Shown piece by piece: positions 4,209 through 12,888 of a DNA stretch of 13,075 bases. The stretch comes from a virus (taxonomy: Duplodnaviria; Heunggongvirae; Uroviricota; Caudoviricetes), in IMG/VR virus record IMGVR_UViG_2690316099_000003. One strand, given 5' to 3'. The notes under the pieces were generated by a model, which saw only the letters and a list, made by a program, of their open reading frames with translations, made no database searches and had not been told where the DNA came from. A program made the translations under genes and the position numbers. Within the stretch, counting starts at the first letter, position 1; every line of letters starts with the position of its first letter.

Positions 4209-4281
4209 NNNNNNNNNNNNNNNNNNNNNNNNNNNNNNNNNNNNNNNNNNNNNNNNNNNNNNNNNNNNNNNNNNNNNNNNN
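4209..4281. other. Assembly gap (73 N) flanked on both sides by the same octamer ccagattg
   Basis: Run of n characters read directly; true length and content unknown. Confidence 0.95.
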
Positions 4282-4488: not shown

Positions 4489-5115
4489 CTAGAGTTCGTA
4501 TTGAACTCCTTTGACTACACCAATGATCAGGCAATTACCATTGATTGGGATGTTGGGATACCGTGGATTTAATGGCACTAAAAACTTTTGAGGACCATCG
4601 ATGACTAATTTTTTTACTGTAGCTTCGTTCGTTCCATCAAGTCGAGCAATGACTATTTTTCCATGACGAGGTTCTGCATCAGGATCTACAATCACTGTTG
4701 CACCTTCTGGTATTGTTGGGAGGCCATTAGGATTAGTCATGGAGTCGCCTTTAACTTCTAATGCAAATGAGTTATCACCAATCTTTAAAGATGTATCTAC
4801 CCACTTGTCCACTTCACTAAACACTTCTGCTGCCCTGCACTCAGTAAACTGCCCAGCCTGAACCCACGAAATTACAGGAACTCTGCGCATGTTTGTGACT
4901 AGTTTGCCTTCAAACTCAGCACCATAAAGAATGTAATCTATTGACGTATTAAAGAACTTCGCTAATTTCGAAAGTGCTTCCCCGCCAGGGACATTGATGT
5001 CTTTTTCCCAGTACCCCACAGCAACGTCACTTACCCCACAAAATTTACCCAATTCTTTCTGGGACGTTCTGGTAACCCTTCTCAGAGCTTTTATACGCTG
5101 ACCAACCGTTTCCAT
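4489..5115 (-). CDS. cI-like phage repressor: N-terminal HTH plus C-terminal S24 (LexA-type) autopeptidase domain (208 aa)
   Basis: N-terminal HTH (VGQRIKALRR...TSQKELGKFCGVSDVAVGYWE); C-terminal GDSM catalytic Ser motif and downstream KK (VKKLV) typical of S24 self-cleaving repressors; divergent from the Cro-like gene. Confidence 0.8.
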   Translation of the reverse strand: METVGQRIKALRRVTRTSQKELGKFCGVSDVAVGYWEKDINVPGGEALSKLAKFFNTSIDYILYGAEFEGKLVTNMRRVPVISWVQAGQFTECRAAEVFSEVDKWVDTSLKIGDNSFALEVKGDSMTNPNGLPTIPEGATVIVDPDAEPRHGKIVIARLDGTNEATVKKLVIDGPQKFLVPLNPRYPNIPINGNCLIIGVVKGVQYEL

Positions 5116-5213: not shown

Positions 5214-5414
5214 ATGACAACTGACGATATCGAAAGCTACTTCGGCAGTATTGAGAAAGTTGCTGCTTTTTTCGGCATAACAACTGAGGCCGTTTATCAG
5301 TGGCGAAACCGTCCGGGCCAGTTAATTCCAAAAGGACGTGCAGCAGAAGCAGCATATAGAACTTGCGGACGGTTGCCATTTAAACCTGAGCTTTATGAAA
5401 AATCTAATGGATAA
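5214..5414 (+). CDS. Cro-like small HTH regulator (66 aa)
   Basis: Small ORF divergent from cI with GGAGGG RBS; HTH-like segment EKVAAFFGITTEAVYQWRN; stop overlaps the start of the next gene. Confidence 0.6.
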   Translation: MTTDDIESYFGSIEKVAAFFGITTEAVYQWRNRPGQLIPKGRAAEAAYRTCGRLPFKPELYEKSNG

Positions 5415-6009
5415 ATCGATTAACAGAAACCACAGAACGATGAGGCTAACCGTGGGTAAGTATCACTGGAAAGTAGAAAAACAGCCTGAGTGGTACGTGA
5501 AAGCTGTCAGAAAAACTATCGCAGCGTTGCCGGGTGGTTACGCTGAAGCAGCTGACTGGCTGGATGTAACAGAGAACGCATTATTTAACCGCCTTCGTGC
5601 CGATGGCGATCAGATTTTCCCGCTGGGATGGGCAATGATTTTACAACGTGCTGGTGGCACTCACTTCATTGCTGACGCTGTGGCGCAGTCTGCAAATGGC
5701 GTCTTTGTGTCTCTTCCTGACGTCGAGGATGTGGACAATGCCGATATTAACCAGCGTTTACTGGAAGTCATTGAACAGATCGGCAGTTATTCAAAACAGA
5801 TTCGTTCGGCAATCGAAGACGGTGTAGTGGAACCGCATGAGAAGACAGCAATTAACGACGAGCTGTACCTCTCAATTTCGAAGCTGCAGGAGCATGCAGC
5901 ACTTGTCTACAAAATTTTTTGCGTTTCAGAAAGTAATGACGCCCGCGAGTGTGCAGCTCCGGGCGTCGTGGCGTCGATTGCTTCTGGTTGTGGAGAAACT
6001 AACGCATGA
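5395..6009 (+). CDS. Phage CII-like regulatory protein (CP76-family-like), start ambiguous (5395 or 5407; track ORF begins 5338)
   Basis: Position right after cro; ATG at 5407 overlaps the cro stop (ATGGATAA), suggesting coupling. Family assignment is from recalled similarity to prophage CII (CP76) proteins, not a search. Confidence 0.45.
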
Positions 6010-6344
6010 ACAGTTTAACAACACACTACCGTCGCTCGCAACTGATTGCGCTTCCTGTACCGGGTGGAAAAGCGAAGGTGGAGTATTGCTATGCAGTAAA
6101 TGTACCAGGTGACAGGGAAATTGTAACCCACAGCTTTGCTGAGTGGGCTGTGGGTGATTTCAACCGGCAGAAGGAGACAGTCCTTTGCGACAAGTTAACC
6201 GCTGGTTCAAAGATCACTACGGAGTACCCGTCAGAGTCATTCGTTGGGAACCGGAAACACAACGGGTTATCTACCTCCGCGAAGGCTATGAGCATGAGTG
6301 CTTCAGCCCGCTCGAACAGTTTCGTCGTAAATTCAGGGAAATAG
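6006..6344 (+). CDS. Hypothetical protein (112 aa)
   Basis: ATG overlaps the previous stop (ATGA at 6006-6009) and ends 9 bp before the next RBS/start, consistent with an operon; no recognisable domain. Confidence 0.4.
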
Positions 6345-6353
6345 AGGTCGGTC

Positions 6354-7295
6354 ATGAGCACTAAATTAACCGGCTATGTATGGGATGGTTGCGCAGCGTC
6401 AGGCATGAAATTATCCAGTGTGGCAATTATGGCCCGCCTGGCTGATTTCAGTAATGACGAAGGTGTGTGCTGGCCATCGATTGAAACCATTGCCCGCCAG
6501 ATTGGCGCGGGGATGAGTACCGTCAGAACGGCTATTGCACGGCTGGAAGCAGAAGGCTGGTTAACGCGTAAGGCGCGTCGCCAGGGTAACCGTAATGCGT
6601 CGAATGTTTATCAGCTTAACGTTGCGAAGCTTCAGGCCGCGGCATTTTCTCAACTGTCAGATTCTGACCCGTCAAAATCTGACGCATCAAAATCTGACCC
6701 GTCAAAATTTGATGCGTCGAAATCTGGCAAAAAAGCGGGTTTTCACCCGTCAGAATCTGGCGGGGATCCGTCAGTAAAATCAAAATATGATCCGTCAGAT
6801 AAAAAACCTTCTCGTCCGGACGTTTCGCAACCGGACACGCAGACGGCTGAACAGGATTTTTTAACTCGCCATCCTGATGCGGTTGTATTCAGCCCTAAAA
6901 AGTGCCAGTGGGGAACGCAGGATGATTTGACCTGCGCACAGTGGCTCTGGAAAAAAATCATCGCCCTGTACGAGCAGGCCGCCGAATGTGACGGCGAGGT
7001 GGTTCGTCCCAAAGAACCGAACTGGACAGCCTGGGCAAACGAAATTCGCCTGATGTGTGTGCAGGATGGTCGTACTCACAAACAAATCTGCGAGATGTAC
7101 AGCCGCATCAGCCGCGATCCGTTCTGGTGCCGTAACGTGCTCAGCCCGTCGAAGCTGCGGGAAAAATGGGATGAGCTTTCCCTGCGCTTATCGCCGTCCA
7201 TCAGCACGTACACAGAAAAACGCGAAGACCCGTACTTCAAAGCCAGTTACGACAATGTGGACTACAGCCAGATCCCGGCAGGATTCAGGGGGTGA
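6354..7295 (+). CDS. Phage replication initiator-like protein (O-like / YfdO-like): N-terminal winged-helix region, repeat-rich linker, C-terminal domain (313 aa)
   Basis: N-terminal HTH-like segment (SVAIMARLADFSNDEGVCWPSIETIARQIGAGMSTVRTAIARLEAEGWL); low-complexity DPSKSDASKSDPSKFDASKSG linker encoded by tandem DNA repeats; position after cro/cII as for lambda O. Confidence 0.55.
   Translation: MSTKLTGYVWDGCAASGMKLSSVAIMARLADFSNDEGVCWPSIETIARQIGAGMSTVRTAIARLEAEGWLTRKARRQGNRNASNVYQLNVAKLQAAAFSQLSDSDPSKSDASKSDPSKFDASKSGKKAGFHPSESGGDPSVKSKYDPSDKKPSRPDVSQPDTQTAEQDFLTRHPDAVVFSPKKCQWGTQDDLTCAQWLWKKIIALYEQAAECDGEVVRPKEPNWTAWANEIRLMCVQDGRTHKQICEMYSRISRDPFWCRNVLSPSKLREKWDELSLRLSPSISTYTEKREDPYFKASYDNVDYSQIPAGFRG
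6654..6810. repeat. Iteron-like tandem array inside the replication gene: four 15-bp units (ccgtcaaaatctgac and variants at 6669, 6684, 6699, 6714) plus further ccgtcag-containing copies at 6747, 6768, 6792, ending in an A-rich stretch
   Basis: Repeat units read directly; the arrangement (iterons within the initiator gene followed by A/T-rich DNA) matches the lambda ori layout. Confidence 0.5.
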
Positions 7296-7297
7296 GC

Positions 7298-7783
7298 ATG
7301 AGTCTTTTGAATGACGTTCAGAAATTCATTGAAGCCCATCCGGGGTGTACTTCCGGAGACATTGCGGATGCTTTTGCAGGTTACTCACGGCAGCGCGTTC
7401 TACAGTCAGCAAGCAAGTTACGTCAGAGCGGGCGTGTGGCTCACCGTTGTGAAGTAGATACACGCAGACATTTCCCGCGCCTGACTGAGAGAGCGCAGGA
7501 GCCGGAACCACAACCAGTTCGTGAAACCAGACCTGTGCGCAATTTCTATGTCGGCACTAACGATCCCCGGGTGATTTTGTTGACCCGCCAGGCGGAAGAA
7601 CTGGAGTCCAGGGGCTTATACCGTCGTGCTGCAACGGTGTGGATGGCGGCATTCCGTGAAAGCCACTCCCAGCCAGAACGAAACAATTTTCTGGCGCATC
7701 GTGAGCGGTGCTTACGGAAAAGCAGCAAGCGCGCTGCATCGGGTGAAGAGTGGTATCTGTCAGGGAATTACGTGGGGGCTTAA
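7298..7783 (+). CDS. PerC-family transcriptional regulator-like protein (161 aa from ATG 7298)
   Basis: Motif AEELESRGLYRRAATVWMAAF resembles the PerC-family core; ATG 7298 has a GGGGG RBS; the track's GTG 7292 start is less likely. Confidence 0.55.
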   Translation: MSLLNDVQKFIEAHPGCTSGDIADAFAGYSRQRVLQSASKLRQSGRVAHRCEVDTRRHFPRLTERAQEPEPQPVRETRPVRNFYVGTNDPRVILLTRQAEELESRGLYRRAATVWMAAFRESHSQPERNNFLAHRERCLRKSSKRAASGEEWYLSGNYVGA

Positions 7784-8436
7784 TGAGTAATAAATATTGC
7801 CAGGCGCTGGTGGAGCTGCGGAACAAACCAGCCCATGAACTGAAGGAAGTGGGCGATCAGTGGCGCACGCCGGACAACATTTTCTGGGGAATTAACACCC
7901 TGTTTGGCCCGTTTGTTCTGGATCTGTTTACTGATGGTGATAACGCCAAATGTGCCGCTTATTACACTGCGGAAGACAACGCGCTGGCGCATGACTGGTC
8001 AGAACGTCTTGCGGAGCTTAAAGGTGCTGCCTTTGGTAATCCCCCGTACAGTCGCGCCAGTCAGCATGAGGGGCAATACATCACCGGCATGCGTTACATC
8101 ATGAAACATGCCAGTGCTATGCGTGATAAAGGCGGGCGCTATGTTTTCCTGATCAAAGCTGCCACCAGCGAAGTGTGGTGGCCGGAAGATGCAGACCATA
8201 TTGCTTTTATTCGCGGGCGTATTGGTTTTGAACTGCCAGCCTGGTTTATCCCGAAGGACGAGAAGCAGGTGCCGACAGGCGCTTTCTTCGCTGGTGCTAT
8301 TGCTGTTTTCGACAAGACCTGGAAGGGACCGGCAATCAGCTACATCGGGCGCGATGAACTTGAGGCATGTGGTGAGGCCTTTCTGGTGCAGGTTCGCCAG
8401 CAGGCGGAAAAACTGGTCAGGGAGATGGCGGCATGA
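7783..8436 (+). CDS. Phage Dam-type DNA N6-adenine methyltransferase (217 aa from ATG 7783)
   Basis: Catalytic NPPY motif (AFGNPPYSRA); ATG 7783 overlaps the upstream stop as TAATG and has a GGGGG RBS; the track's 7750 start lies inside the upstream gene. Confidence 0.75.
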   Translation: MSNKYCQALVELRNKPAHELKEVGDQWRTPDNIFWGINTLFGPFVLDLFTDGDNAKCAAYYTAEDNALAHDWSERLAELKGAAFGNPPYSRASQHEGQYITGMRYIMKHASAMRDKGGRYVFLIKAATSEVWWPEDADHIAFIRGRIGFELPAWFIPKDEKQVPTGAFFAGAIAVFDKTWKGPAISYIGRDELEACGEAFLVQVRQQAEKLVREMAA

Positions 8437-8759
8437 CGACATTAACTCAATGCCAGCAGCAGGTGCTGGATATGCTGATTTCTTACCAGAAAGAACGTGG
8501 CTTCCCGCCAACCAATCAGGAGGTGGCAACCATGCTGGGATACCGTTCAGTGAATGCAGCAGTGGAGCATCTTCGCGCACTGGAGAAAAAAGGCGTCATC
8601 ACGATAAAGCGTGGCGTGGCCCGGGGGATAACGCTTCATACCGCGGTGAAGGACGACGACAGCGAGGCGGTCGGGATTATCCGCTCACTGCTTGCCGGTG
8701 AGGAAAACGCAAGGCTGCGTGCAACCCACTGGTTACATGAGAGAGGCCTGAAAGCATGA
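8433..8759 (+). CDS. LexA N-terminal DNA-binding-domain-like protein lacking the S24 peptidase domain (108 aa)
   Basis: Near-colinear match to the recalled LexA N-terminus (ours RGFPPTNQEVATMLGYRSVNAAVEHLRALEKKGVITIKRGVARGITL versus LexA [36 protein letters not shown]...RGIRL); no Ser/Lys peptidase domain follows; ATGA overlap with the upstream gene. Confidence 0.65.
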   Translation: MTTLTQCQQQVLDMLISYQKERGFPPTNQEVATMLGYRSVNAAVEHLRALEKKGVITIKRGVARGITLHTAVKDDDSEAVGIIRSLLAGEENARLRATHWLHERGLKA

Positions 8760-9145
8760 AGCTGATCCTGCCTTTTCCGCCCAGCGTGAACACGTACTGG
8801 CGACACCCCAACAAAGGGGCGTTTGCAGGTAAGAGCCTGATAAGCGCGGCGGGGCGAAAATTCCAGAGCGCGGCGTGTGCAGCAATAGTTGAGCAGTTAC
8901 GTCGTCTGCCAAAACCAACGTCGGCACCTGCTTCAGTGGAGATCGTGTTGTTTCCTCCGGATAACCGGATCCGCGATCTGGACAACTATAACAAGGCGCT
9001 GTTTGACGCCCTGACCCACGCGGGTGTGTGGGAGGACGACAGTCAGGTGAAAAGAATGCTGGTGGAGTGGGGACCGGTTATCCCGGAAGGGAAGGTCGAG
9101 ATCACTATCAGTAAGTACGAGAAAACGGCGGGTGCAGCCGCCTGA
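8756..9145 (+). CDS. rusA: RusA-family Holliday junction resolvase (129 aa)
   Basis: N-terminal LILPFPPSVNTYW signature and size typical of RusA; ATGA overlap with the upstream gene. Confidence 0.75.
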   Translation: MKLILPFPPSVNTYWRHPNKGAFAGKSLISAAGRKFQSAACAAIVEQLRRLPKPTSAPASVEIVLFPPDNRIRDLDNYNKALFDALTHAGVWEDDSQVKRMLVEWGPVIPEGKVEITISKYEKTAGAAA

Positions 9146-9164: not shown

Positions 9165-9974
9165 ATGAATAATCTGATGGTCATTGATGGTATTGAAGTT
9201 CGTCGTGATGCTTATGGGCGTTACAGCCTGAACGATCTGCATCGCGCAGCAGTAGCATCTGGTGCAAATGCCAGAACCAAGGAGCCGGGAAAGTTTCTTT
9301 CCAGCCAACAAACTGTTGAGCTTGTTCATGAATTGACCAACACCCAGAATTTGGGTGTTGACCCGGTGAGTGTGATTCATGGGGGAAATGAACGGGGAAC
9401 GTATGTCTGCAAGGAACTGGTGTATGCCTATGCAATGTGGATCAGCCCGTCATTCCATCTGAAGGTGATCCGTACTTTCGATATGGTAACCAGCGCACCG
9501 GAAAAATTATCCGGACAGGCTGCTGACAAGATGCAGGCTGGCGTGATCCTGCTGGACTTTATGCGCCGGGAGTTAAACCTGTCTAACTCTTCAGTGCTTG
9601 GTGCCTGTCAGAAACTCCAGGAGGCTGTTGGCTTACCGAATCTGGCACCGCGCTATGCCATTGATGCTCCTGCTGATGCACACGATGGCTCAAGTCGCCC
9701 GACACTGTCACTGAGCGCACTGCTGAAACAGTATGGTATACGCCTGACGGCTAATCAGGCATATCACCAGATGGTGAAACTGGGGATCGTCGAGCAGCGC
9801 GAACGATACAGCCGTACCGCGATTAACAACATCAAAAAATTCTGGTCGCTGACAGCGAAAGGTTGCATGTTCGGCAAGAACATCACCAGTCCCGCAAATC
9901 CGCGCGAGACGCAGCCGCATTTCTTCGAATCCCGATTCCCTGAGCTGTTAAAGCTGCTCGATACCGTTCATTGA
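9165..9974 (+). CDS. KilA-N domain protein, possible antirepressor-like (269 aa)
   Basis: N-terminal KilA-N-like pattern (DGIEVRR...YSLNDLHRAA...GTYVCKELVYAYAMWISPSFHLKVIRTF); strong AGGAG RBS 12 nt upstream. Confidence 0.65.
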   Translation: MNNLMVIDGIEVRRDAYGRYSLNDLHRAAVASGANARTKEPGKFLSSQQTVELVHELTNTQNLGVDPVSVIHGGNERGTYVCKELVYAYAMWISPSFHLKVIRTFDMVTSAPEKLSGQAADKMQAGVILLDFMRRELNLSNSSVLGACQKLQEAVGLPNLAPRYAIDAPADAHDGSSRPTLSLSALLKQYGIRLTANQAYHQMVKLGIVEQRERYSRTAINNIKKFWSLTAKGCMFGKNITSPANPRETQPHFFESRFPELLKLLDTVH

Positions 9975-9975
9975 G

Positions 9976-10971
9976 GTGACCGTGAGAGCGCTACTGACCC
10001 CTGAAATTGCCCCGCGTATGGGGATCGTATTGTTCAGGCCAGGTTCAGAGCTGATGCCCCTGTTTATGCAGGGGCGTGTCCTGCTGGAGCCTGAGCCGGA
10101 GCGTTATTCATCTTTCGCGAGTGGTGCCGTTCCGGCGGCATCACAACCGCTGGCGGATGATCCTGCCGTTCGGGCCGTGTTCCGCAATGAGGCAGTGATC
10201 CGTCGTGCTGGTGGCGTGGAATGTCTTGAAAGCTGGTTACTTCGTGAAAAAGGCTGCCAGAGGCCTCATTCCGACTGGCACAGCGAGAACATGACCACAA
10301 TGCGACACGCTCCGGGTGCAATCCGTCTGTGCTGGCACTGCGATAACCAGCTGCGCGATCAGTTCACGGAACGGCTGGAATCAATGGCAACGGATAACTG
10401 TGCCCGCTGGGTGTTGTCTGTTGTGCGTCGGGATCTCGGTTTTGATGACAGTCACGTTGTGACAATGCCGGAACTGTGCTGGTGGCTGATTCGTAATGAC
10501 CTGGCGGATGCCTTACCGGAAAGTGCAGCCCGTAAGGCACTGAGATTACCGAAGCCTGTTGTGCCGTCTGTCACCCGGGAAAGTGACCTTGTGCCTTCGG
10601 TTCCTGCCACCAGCATCATCCAGGATAAGGCGAAAAAGGTGCTGGCGCTGAAAGTGGATCCGGAGTCGCCGGAGTCTTTTATGTTACGCCCAAAACGTCG
10701 CCGCTGGGTTAATGAAAAGTACACGCGCTGGGTTAAGACACAGCCGTGTGCATGTTGTGGAAAGCCCGCTGATGATCCCCACCACCTGATAGGTCACGGT
10801 CAGGGTGGAATGGGAACAAAAGCGCATGACCTTTTTGTGTTGCCTTTGTGCAGAAAGCATCACGACGAGCTGCATGCGGATACCGTGGCATTTGAAGAGA
10901 AGTATGGCTCCCAGCTGGAGCTGATATTTCGTTTTATCGATCGTGCGCTGGCAATAGGCGTACTGGCGTAA
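9976..10971 (+). CDS. DUF968-family phage protein (YdfU-like) with C-terminal Cys/His-rich HNH-like motif (331 aa from GTG 9976; alternative ATG 10018)
   Basis: C-terminal CACCGK...DDPHHL...CRKHHDELH cluster; size and position before Q match the recalled Qin ydfU context; GTG start directly abuts the upstream stop. Confidence 0.55.
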   Translation: MTVRALLTPEIAPRMGIVLFRPGSELMPLFMQGRVLLEPEPERYSSFASGAVPAASQPLADDPAVRAVFRNEAVIRRAGGVECLESWLLREKGCQRPHSDWHSENMTTMRHAPGAIRLCWHCDNQLRDQFTERLESMATDNCARWVLSVVRRDLGFDDSHVVTMPELCWWLIRNDLADALPESAARKALRLPKPVVPSVTRESDLVPSVPATSIIQDKAKKVLALKVDPESPESFMLRPKRRRWVNEKYTRWVKTQPCACCGKPADDPHHLIGHGQGGMGTKAHDLFVLPLCRKHHDELHADTVAFEEKYGSQLELIFRFIDRALAIGVLA

Positions 10972-10984
10972 GTGGAGAACGAGC

Positions 10985-11737
10985 ATGAACCTTGAAGCCT
11001 TACCAAAATATTACTCCCCAAAATCTCCAAAATTGAGTGATGACGCACCGGCGACAGGCTCTGGTGGTTTAACGATTACGGATGTGATGGCTGCGCAGGG
11101 GATGGTGCAGTCGAAAGCACCGCTTGGGTTTGCCTTATTCCTGGCAAAAGTTGGTGTTCAGGATCCTCAGTTTGCGATTGAAGGTCTGCTCAATTACGCG
11201 ATGGCACTGGATAACCCGACATTGAATAAATTGAGTGAAGAAACCCGGCTACAGATTATTCCTTACCTTGTGAATTTTGCCTTTGCTGATTATTCCAGGT
11301 CTGCGGCAAGTAAGGCTCGTTGTGAGCATTGTGCTGGTACTGGATTTCATAATGTATTGCTCGAAGTGGTGAAACACTCCAGAAGCGGGGAATCTGTTAT
11401 CAAAGAAGAGTGGGTGAAGGAACTATGTCAGCATTGCCATGGTAAGGGAGAAGTCAGCACAGCGTGCAGAGGGTGTAAGGGTAAAGGTATTGTCCTGGAT
11501 GAAAAAAGGACCCGGCTTCATGGCACACCTGTTTATAAGATTTGTGGGCGTTGCAATGGAAAACGGTTTAGTCGTTTACCAACCACACTGGCGCGGCATC
11601 ATGTCCAGAAGCTGGTACCAGACCTGAGTGATTATCAGTGGTATAAAGGATATGCAAATGTCATTGATAAACTGGTTACAAAGTGCTGGCAGGAGGAATC
11701 TTACGCTGAAGCACAATTGAGAAAGGTGACGAGATAA
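10985..11737 (+). CDS. Late-gene antiterminator Q-like protein (250 aa) with four CxxCxGxG zinc-finger motifs
   Basis: CEHCAGTG, CQHCHGKG, CRGCKGKG, CGRCNGKR read in translation; 250 aa equals the recalled size of Qin QuuQ; followed by a promoter plus terminator as expected for PR'-tR'. Confidence 0.6.
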   Translation: MNLEALPKYYSPKSPKLSDDAPATGSGGLTITDVMAAQGMVQSKAPLGFALFLAKVGVQDPQFAIEGLLNYAMALDNPTLNKLSEETRLQIIPYLVNFAFADYSRSAASKARCEHCAGTGFHNVLLEVVKHSRSGESVIKEEWVKELCQHCHGKGEVSTACRGCKGKGIVLDEKRTRLHGTPVYKICGRCNGKRFSRLPTTLARHHVQKLVPDLSDYQWYKGYANVIDKLVTKCWQEESYAEAQLRKVTR

Positions 11738-12672: not shown

Positions 12673-12888
12673 ATGTCAAATAAAATGACTGGTTTAGTAA
12701 AATGGTTTAACGCTGATAAAGGTTTTGGCTTTATTTCTCCTGTTGATGGTAGTAAAGATGTGTTTGTGCATTTTTCTGCGATTCAGAATGATAATTATCG
12801 AACCTTATTTGAAGGACAAAAGGTTACCTTCTCTGTAGAGAGTGGTGCTAAAGGTCCAGCAGCAGCAAATGTCATCATTACTGATTAA
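12673..12888 (+). CDS. cspB: Cold-shock protein CspB-like, CspA family (71 aa)
   Basis: [38 protein letters not shown] with RNP1 (KGFGFI) and RNP2 (VFVHF) motifs; about 300 bp AT-rich upstream region consistent with the long 5'UTR of cold-shock genes. Confidence 0.85.

Follow-up and report, generated by a model that had tools for sequence, protein, structure and literature searches.

In bacteriophage lambda the iterons of the replication origin are imperfect inverted repeats bound by the initiator O (PMC7466680), and the origin-binding proteins of lambda, P22 and phage L each have iterons of their own, located within the gene that encodes the protein (PMC8022706). Here we analyse 13,075 nucleotides (one strand, 5' to 3'; hereafter the window) of the Caudoviricetes record IMGVR_UViG_2690316099_000003 from IMG/VR, in which an earlier reading of the sequence alone (the original prediction) had placed an iteron-like array, and with it a probable phage ori, inside an O-like replication-initiator gene. 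We consider it highly probable (about 85%) that the initiator of a prophage binds this array as part of a lambda-type replication origin, situated within the initiator gene. DNA-level constraint on the repeats, an O-type initiator and a lambda-like position all support the predicted ori, and binding and origin activity are what we infer from them. The features on which the argument draws are the following (no strand is given for DNA sites).

6354-7295, + strand: initiator, 313 aa (ORF translation; PHROGs phrog_391; Pfam HTH_36)
6420-6563, + strand: HTH_36 winged-helix DNA-binding domain (aa 23-70), the presumed iteron reader (Pfam PF13730, 42.9 bits against a cut-off of 25)
6657-6727: five tandem iterons in a 15-bp register, starting at 6657, 6672, 6687, 6702 and, degenerate, 6717 (Tandem Repeats Finder (TRF), repeat search, pattern scan against shuffles, position matrix)
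6739-6806: conserved non-tandem block, TTTTCACCCGTCAGAATCTGGCGGGGATCCGTCAGTAAAATCAAAATATGATCCGTCAGATAAAAAA (per-codon table, 67 genes)
6765-6768 and 6789-6792: two GATC (Dam) sites, 24 bp apart, in the conserved block (sequence scan and codon counts)
6773-6806: A-rich stretch, a weak candidate DNA-unwinding element (duplex stability, GC profile)
6796-6832: mosaic junction, with the N-terminal domain and iterons to its left and the C-terminal domain to its right (phage alignments)
6849-7184, + strand: lambda-O-type C-terminal domain (aa 166-277), helical (BLASTP against lambda O; AF2 model)
7266-7292, + strand: C-terminal peptide SQIPAGFRG (aa 305-313), compared with the DnaT C-terminus SQIPPGFRG

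The likeness to lambda ori that had been claimed is borne out by position: the four annotated lambda iterons lie at nt 349-433 of the 900-nt gene O, between the O domains, and the dyad sites of the window occupy nt 304-437 of the 942-nt initiator gene, between its two domains. In lambda, P22 (gene 18) and phage L (gene 18) the origin occupies the central part of the initiator gene, as is proposed for the window, and is flanked by the coding sequences of a sequence-specific DNA-binding domain (N-terminal) and a recruitment domain (C-terminal). Lambda-type origins and the window also have in common several direct repeats, all of them imperfect inverted repeats, and an A/T-richer stretch to their right, and lambda-type initiators share with it an N-terminal domain swapped together with its iterons as a module and a C-terminal domain homologous to lambda O. 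The window departs from lambda in its N-terminal domain, which is HTH_36 and has no Phage_rep_O match, and in its iterons, which are 11-13 bp long in a strict 15-bp register, whereas those of lambda are annotated as 18-bp sites, of different sequence and placed 20-24 bp start to start. Its AT-rich element is weak, it has neither the P gene of lambda nor the DnaB-type helicase gene of P22, and its initiator carries a DnaT-type C-terminal peptide that lambda O lacks.

The iteron plasmid initiators pSC101 RepA, R6K pi and RK2 TrfA likewise combine one winged-helix initiator with direct repeats and recruit host DnaB/DnaC. Their origins lie outside the rep gene, usually with DnaA boxes, whereas the proposed origin of the window is within the gene and no DnaA box was found near the array. 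'Initiator-solo' phage replication modules were reportedly defined in a 2006 review by Weigel and Seitz. Escherichia coli DnaT resembles the window initiator in its extreme C-terminal peptide; it differs in having the PF17948 domain, which was not detected here, and an N-terminal oligomerisation domain, which the window initiator lacks, and in joining PriA/PriB at forks, whereas the window initiator is predicted to bind a specific duplex origin. The architecture of the window initiator, an HTH_36 N-terminus with a DnaT C-terminal motif, is found also in DopC, a domesticated lambda-O-like protein of Cellvibrionales and Oceanospirillales (PMC5509034, Brezellec et al. 2017). DopC is chromosomal, always paired with the P-like DopE and without iterons (PMC5509034), whereas the window gene is prophage-borne, contains iterons and has no P partner.

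Conservation of the repeats as DNA

TRF reports a single tandem array at 6663-6726 (period 15, 4.3 copies, 81% matches, consensus TCTGACCCGTCAAAA), for which a period-30 description scores slightly higher, with 88% matches (TRF scores 86-100). The array units carry internal dyad symmetry, for example GTCAGATTCTGAC, and the iteron unit is an 11-13-bp dyad, (G)TCA(A/G)A(A/T)TCTGA(C), with an 11-bp core TCA(A/G)A(A/T)TCTGA and a variable spacer of 3-4 bp. Scanning for TCARAWTCTGA with at most one mismatch gave 11 strand-hits, corresponding to six sites (6657, 6672, 6687, 6702, 6750 and 6780), against 1.16 strand-hits expected in 13 kb, and none of 200 shuffles reached 11. All six are confined to the 134 bp of 6657-6790, with none elsewhere in the window, and a seventh, degenerate unit with two mismatches is found at 6717. 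The four 15-bp units originally placed at 6669-6728 are this same array shifted by a few bases, and the three CCGTCAG copies predicted at 6747, 6768 and 6792 were all located there. CCGTCAG occurs also at 6228 and 6520; in all, the window has 8 copies, where 1.2 are expected and none of 200 shuffles has as many. The three half-sites at 6747, 6768 and 6792 lie in the block 6739-6806 together with the best palindrome (6750-6760) and another site (6780-6790). The array is in frame within ORF 6354-7295 and translates as SDSDPSKSDASKSDPSKFDASKSGKK...DPSVKSKYDPSDKK, beginning SDSDPSKSDASKSDPSKFDASKS, so that the repeats do encode, as had been proposed, a repetitive linker of the O-like gene, between the HTH_36 and lambda-O-type domains.

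An in-frame array of this kind would make a plausible flexible linker, and the repeats could in principle be a low-complexity Ser/Asp/Lys/Pro linker and nothing more, with the DNA repeat a product of recent tandem duplication and the origin elsewhere. To set protein against DNA we used homologues from a scan with the N-terminal 98 residues as query, one genome per species, which gave 80 loci and 67 usable close relatives (69-100% identity) from Escherichia, Citrobacter, Kosakonia, Yersinia, Pantoea, Providencia, Proteus, Rahnella and other genera. The 67 genes share descent, so that counts made on them are not independent; the effect, however, is large and recurs consistently from genus to genus. 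The repeat linker is present in all 67, with 2-9 sites per genome, a range of copy number also seen in slippage-prone linkers. Its 67 x 330 nt hold 320 sites, from which the position matrix for the iteron unit was built, as against 30 sites in 386 kb of flanking DNA from the same 67 prophages.

In the comparison with Citrobacter phage phiNP, 38 of the differences in codons 1-100 are synonymous and 13 non-synonymous; in codons 101-150 the numbers are 2 and 8. Codon usage, counted in the 58 of the 67 genes that have the anchor motif of the count, points the same way. Lys is AAA in 99% of repeat-region codons, compared with 60% and 62% in the two flanking domains, and Ser is TCA or TCT in 86%, compared with 21% and 32%. 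Moreover, each Ser position has its own favoured codon across genera, TCA at one and TCT at the other, and the Asp codons GAC and GAT of the repeat region stay unbiased at about 50/50. In the block FxPSESGGDPSVxS, 11.6% of residue-identical codon pairs differ synonymously among the 67 genes, compared with 56.8% in the N-terminal domain, and amino-acid divergence is alike in the two (23.7% and 20.5%, respectively). Individual codons of the block are close to fixed across the 67 genes: GAT in 67, GTA in 66, TTT in 65 and CCG in 63.

The 15-bp unit itself consists of 12 conserved bases and a variable triplet that alters the encoded amino acid (A, P, G, T, V or R), and conservation is thus independent of codon position. 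An overlapping gene as the source of the constraint was rejected, since the conservation runs as 12 contiguous bases plus a variable triplet and has no 3-base period.

This codon-level comparison shows that the repeats are under selection as DNA and not merely as protein. That they might be kept only at the protein level, a possibility which the original prediction had itself raised against an origin, is rejected, synonymous sites being frozen across the 67 homologues and amino acids varying as they do elsewhere. Tandem repeats may homogenise within a genome, but such homogenisation cannot yield identical codons in prophages of Providencia, Yersinia, Pantoea and Escherichia, and the non-tandem block 6739-6806 is equally frozen. 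With synonymous sites far more conserved than in the flanking domains and spacer-triplet amino acids varying freely, a linker maintained for its protein sequence is a very improbable explanation.

A constraint on the message rather than on the DNA was also considered, in which the palindromic repeats would fold and so control translation or stability of the initiator mRNA. The segment 6640-6815 does fold, with -54.1 kcal/mol and z = -4.66 relative to shuffles. A z-score of this size is, however, expected of any palindromic array; in the predicted long-range stems the pairing partners are different units, so that with 2-9 units among the relatives there is no fixed structure to conserve; and what is conserved is the sequence of each unit, both half-sites included. 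We therefore reject an mRNA structure, which we regard as having next to no chance of being the cause.

The initiator, its module and the proposed origin

By domain homology the window gene is an O-type initiator, and it departs from that family in having no adjacent loader gene. The protein is 98% identical to SfIV gp41 and to the O-family counterpart in SfII, and PHROGs assigns it to phrog_391, 'replication initiation O-like' (E 5e-134). In a direct BLASTP comparison with lambda O only the C-terminal domain aligns (aa 166-277 with lambda O 171-270, 39% identity, E 6e-25); the lambda O segment matched is the part that binds lambda P. An AF2 model of the domain has an all-helical core (pLDDT 74). 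No Pfam or NCBIfam family matched the C-terminal half, and Phage_rep_O, the N-terminal domain of lambda O, is absent from the Pfam matches of the initiator at E <= 0.01. A whole-protein sequence search of solved structures returned weak MarR/PaaX winged-helix matches only, and the 35-aa tail had no match.

The recognition helix, STVRTAI, is nearly invariant in the 67 relatives, as is the iteron core. In a Providencia/Proteus branch (L057, L059-L061, L064, L068, L069 and L076) the iteron variant TCAAAATCTGT(C/T), with TCTGTY units, replaces ...TCTGAC, and the wing is also altered, to SREKRR or SSEKRR instead of TRKARR. These changes may represent co-variation of specificity.

Phage alignments show that the N-terminal domain and the iterons are inherited together as one exchangeable module, with the junction immediately 3' of the array. 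Phage phiNP matches only query positions 2-479 (83.5% identity), having the N-terminal domain and repeats in common with the window and a Phg_2220_C domain in place of its C-terminal domain, and mEp460_4F5 matches only positions 443-942, having the C-terminal domain in common and an unrelated N-terminal domain. At the equivalent mid-gene place mEp460_4F5 (L003:2855-2970) has four copies of a different 23-nt dyad, CATCGGGTCAAAGTGACCTGATG, and the SfV initiator (L004:3023-3127) has yet another repeat, of the GTGCAGGAGATTCAC type; both are presumably the iterons of their own initiators. BLAST clustering of the C-terminal domains placed all of them in one cluster and was uninformative. In two E. 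coli chromosomes (L055 and L075) initiator aa 1-79 (99% identical) continue directly into unrelated sequence; both prophages are rearranged, with loss of the iteron array.

For initiator binding to the repeats, unwinding and its site, origin firing and the route of the helicase, we infer the following steps. N-terminal winged-helix dimers would bind the TCA(A/G)A(A/T)TCTGA dyads, five in tandem at 6657-6727 with 15-bp spacing and two at 6750 and 6780. The resulting nucleoprotein complex, with transcription through the gene from the early rightward promoter, would destabilise adjacent DNA, the likeliest place for unwinding being the A-rich, GATC-containing 6765-6806. The C-terminal half, comprising the lambda-O-type helical domain and the ...IPxGFRG-COOH end, would then bring in the host helicase.

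The A-rich tract that had been said to follow the repeats is present but modest, and weaker than implied. Positions 6775-6804 form the least stable 30-mer within the gene (z = 2.27, top 1.9% of the window), yet the stretch is far less AT-rich than the intergenic regions (GC 0.40 over 6780-6819), and at the 100-bp scale the array region is unremarkable for stability (z = 0.63). The two GATC sites in the conserved block are themselves conserved: at the first, the Asp codon GAT is followed by CC in 67/67 genes, and at the second GAT is followed by CC in at least 56/67. Across the whole window GATC shows no enrichment. An adenine methylase (Dam, MT-A70 or D12) is the first or second gene 3' of the initiator in about 43 of 65 relatives. 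The conserved pair and the neighbouring methylase suggest a link between methylation or SeqA and use of the origin, and it is possible that the pair acts jointly with the downstream methylase as a second layer.

Several observations weigh against an origin at the array. Its A-rich stretch is only mildly unstable (z = 2.27 over 30 bp and about 0.6 over 100 bp), unlike the pronounced AT-rich region of lambda. With a spacing of 15 bp, adjacent dimers would sit on nearly opposite sides of the DNA helix. All the sites lie in one reading frame and go back to one ancestor, the 67 genes not being phylogenetically independent. The palindromic block CCGTCAGAATCTGGCGGGGATCC (6745-6770) resembles lambda TTCGTCAGAGAATTCTGGCGAATCC (L087:~860-885; NC_001416 ~39160-39185), which lies to the right of the AT-rich region and has an EcoRI site. 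As the lambda O N-terminal domain is unrelated, the shared palindrome may be read by something other than the N-terminal domain; the likeness may reflect an ancient shared origin or linker element, or coincidence. A literature search found no origin described for SfII, SfIV or SfV.

Two of these observations, the lambda-like palindrome despite an unrelated N-terminal domain and the want of a strong AT-rich unwinding element beside the array, would be equally at home in a functional protein-binding array that is not an origin, such as an autoregulatory or copy-control site or the site of some other phage or host regulator. Iteron-binding initiators of plasmids commonly use their sites for control too. 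The place of the array, between the N- and C-terminal domains of an O-type initiator, is nevertheless that of the origin in lambda, P22 and phage L, and every N-terminal domain class has its own repeat at that place. There is no second cluster of the dyad motif in the 13 kb, and a phage with a single replication gene needs an origin, for which the early region offers no other candidate. On this evidence a purely regulatory array appears unlikely, and an origin within the initiator gene remains our preferred explanation.

Helicase recruitment and the DnaT-like tail

That no P/DnaC-like or DnaB-like gene follows the initiator, as first noted from the sequence, was confirmed in the window. Pfam detected no helicase or helicase loader among its ORFs, and tblastn with lambda P, E. 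coli DnaC and P22 gp12 found no match in the window or in the complete SfIV genome, whose 54 genes include gp41 as the sole replication gene. It had also been proposed that homologous prophages be checked for a loader elsewhere; there was none in the SfIV genome and none in 63 of 65 relatives. Among these 65 the first ORF 3' of the initiator encodes a Dam-family methylase in 19, a PerC-like protein in 16, MT-A70 in 5 and a D12 methylase in 2, and a loader in two (lambda P in L043, an IstB/DnaC-like protein in L049); the second ORF adds 17 further adenine methylases and no helicase. A phage that encodes neither P nor DnaC nor DnaB must rely on DnaB of the host as its helicase, brought in by the host's DnaC.

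A possible way of recruiting the host helicase is suggested by the end of the initiator. Its last residues are ...VDYSQIPAGFRG, and those of E. coli DnaT (L085:3979-4518, - strand) are ...SEPDSQIPPGFRG, with 8 of 9 residues equal and both peptides C-terminal. The relatives end ...RDVNAISEPDNTIPEGFRG, and one of them, P0073, aligns with DnaT 150-179 at 63% identity (E 2e-8). Aligned by hhalign, the initiator and DnaT give 88% probability, with the tail alone aligning. In 18 DnaT orthologues I173, P174, G176, F177, R178 and G179 are invariant, and some orthologues end GFRGAK, as do some phage variants. Some relatives with a Phg_2220_C domain align to DnaT 101-179; in the window initiator PF17948, the three-helix single-stranded-DNA-binding domain of DnaT, was not detected. 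The tail is joined to a lambda-O-type domain here, to Phg_2220_C in phiNP and, in SfV, to a C-terminal half that BLASTP linked to neither domain. Its invariance in DnaT and its occurrence on at least two, probably three, kinds of C-terminal domain in phage initiators argue that the tail is functional.

The tail is present in 42 of 70 related initiators, and a downstream loader accompanies none of the 42 tail-bearing and 5 of the 28 tail-less ones (Fisher p = 0.008, uncorrected for phylogeny). The comparison is based on the 70 genome loci, since a scan of IMG/VR with the C-terminal domain gave near-identical copies only. As a best guess, the DnaT-like tail would contact whatever DnaT's own tail contacts in the restart primosome. 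A bolder proposal is that ...(S/T)xIPxGFRG-COOH is a portable recruitment handle, with which 'solo' initiators would mimic DnaT in drawing DnaB-DnaC of the host, or the PriA primosome, to an origin in duplex DNA; this we put forward tentatively, as a conjecture that is rather unlikely to hold in full.

Two points count against giving the tail this part in recruitment. Twenty-three tail-less relatives also have no loader, so the tail is not the only route, and the partner of DnaT's tail is described as unknown (PMC13377028; PMC5778457). A 2026 structural study still calls unknown how DnaT recruits DnaB/DnaC (PMC13377028), and our literature search found no stated function for the last residues of DnaT.

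The origin could also lie at the array with the helicase recruited independently of the tail, by the lambda-O-type domain binding DnaB/DnaC, by a small phage protein or by DnaA. The 23 relatives without tail or loader fit such a route, and the plasmid initiators pSC101 RepA, R6K pi and RK2 TrfA recruit DnaB/DnaC with no loader of their own. A small protein is on hand in the conserved phrog_1170 ORF (6006-6344), which lies directly 5' of the initiator here, in SfIV (gp40) and in mEp460_4F5 and could be an accessory replication factor in loader-less modules; RefSeq genomes label this neighbour DUF4222. DnaA is a poorer candidate: the DNA up to about 190 bp from the array contains no DnaA box, and matches in the window are at chance level (33 against 26.8 expected). 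Both the invariance of the tail in DnaT, with its spread over two or probably three C-terminal domain kinds, and the want of a loader in all 42 tail-bearing relatives speak against tail-independent recruitment, which we nevertheless hold to be a serious possibility, if somewhat short of probable.

Gene neighbourhood and distribution

The window represents the early region of an SfIV/SfII/SfV-type lambdoid prophage and has the gene order of SfIV. Around the initiator the genes are as follows (ORF list with Pfam/PHROGs annotation).

4489-5115, - strand: S24/HTH repressor
5214-5414, + strand: Cro
about 5338-6009, + strand: CII-like activator
6006-6344, + strand: conserved ORF of 112 aa, function unassigned (phrog_1170)
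7292-7783, + strand: PerC-like protein
7750-8436, + strand: Dam-family adenine methylase
8433-8759, + strand: LexA-DBD protein
8756-9145, + strand: RusA
9165-9974, + strand: KilA-N protein
9976-10971, + strand: DUF968/HNH protein
10985-11737, + strand: Q antiterminator

Of 5426 complete E. coli genomes, 2006 (37%) carry the N-terminal domain with the iteron segment, and the C-terminal domain occurs in at least 593 IMG/VR contigs. Databases label the gene 'helix-turn-helix domain-containing protein', 'primosomal protein' or 'replication protein O'. Our literature search found no description of the window's iteron family or origin; the arrangement of the origin is ordinary and well known, and the iteron family appears to be undescribed in the literature searched. 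One of the commonest replication modules among E. coli and Shigella prophages thus gains a putative origin and a consensus for its iterons, which is of use in prophage annotation, in predicting the replication specificity and incompatibility of co-resident prophages, and in the construction of minimal replicons based on Stx and serotype-converting phages. What merits further work is the loader-less, DnaT-tailed design. A lambda-O-type initiator without P that ends in DnaT's tail yields a testable idea of how loader-less phages obtain the host helicase and of the role of that tail, and, if the tail should prove to be a portable handle, a common prophage origin would become a simple genetic system for finding the helicase-recruiting element of DnaT.

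Records labelled Vagococcus, Chryseobacterium and Martelella (L012, L036 and L041) carry this enterobacterial prophage module at 82-89% amino-acid identity, probably through contamination or mislabelling of the assemblies. Between the left-arm genes and the repressor gene, positions 4209-4281 consist of N (masked or unknown bases). A cold-shock-domain (CspA-like) gene is located at 12673-12888 (+ strand), 3' of the Q antiterminator, a frequent position for cargo genes in lambdoid prophages.

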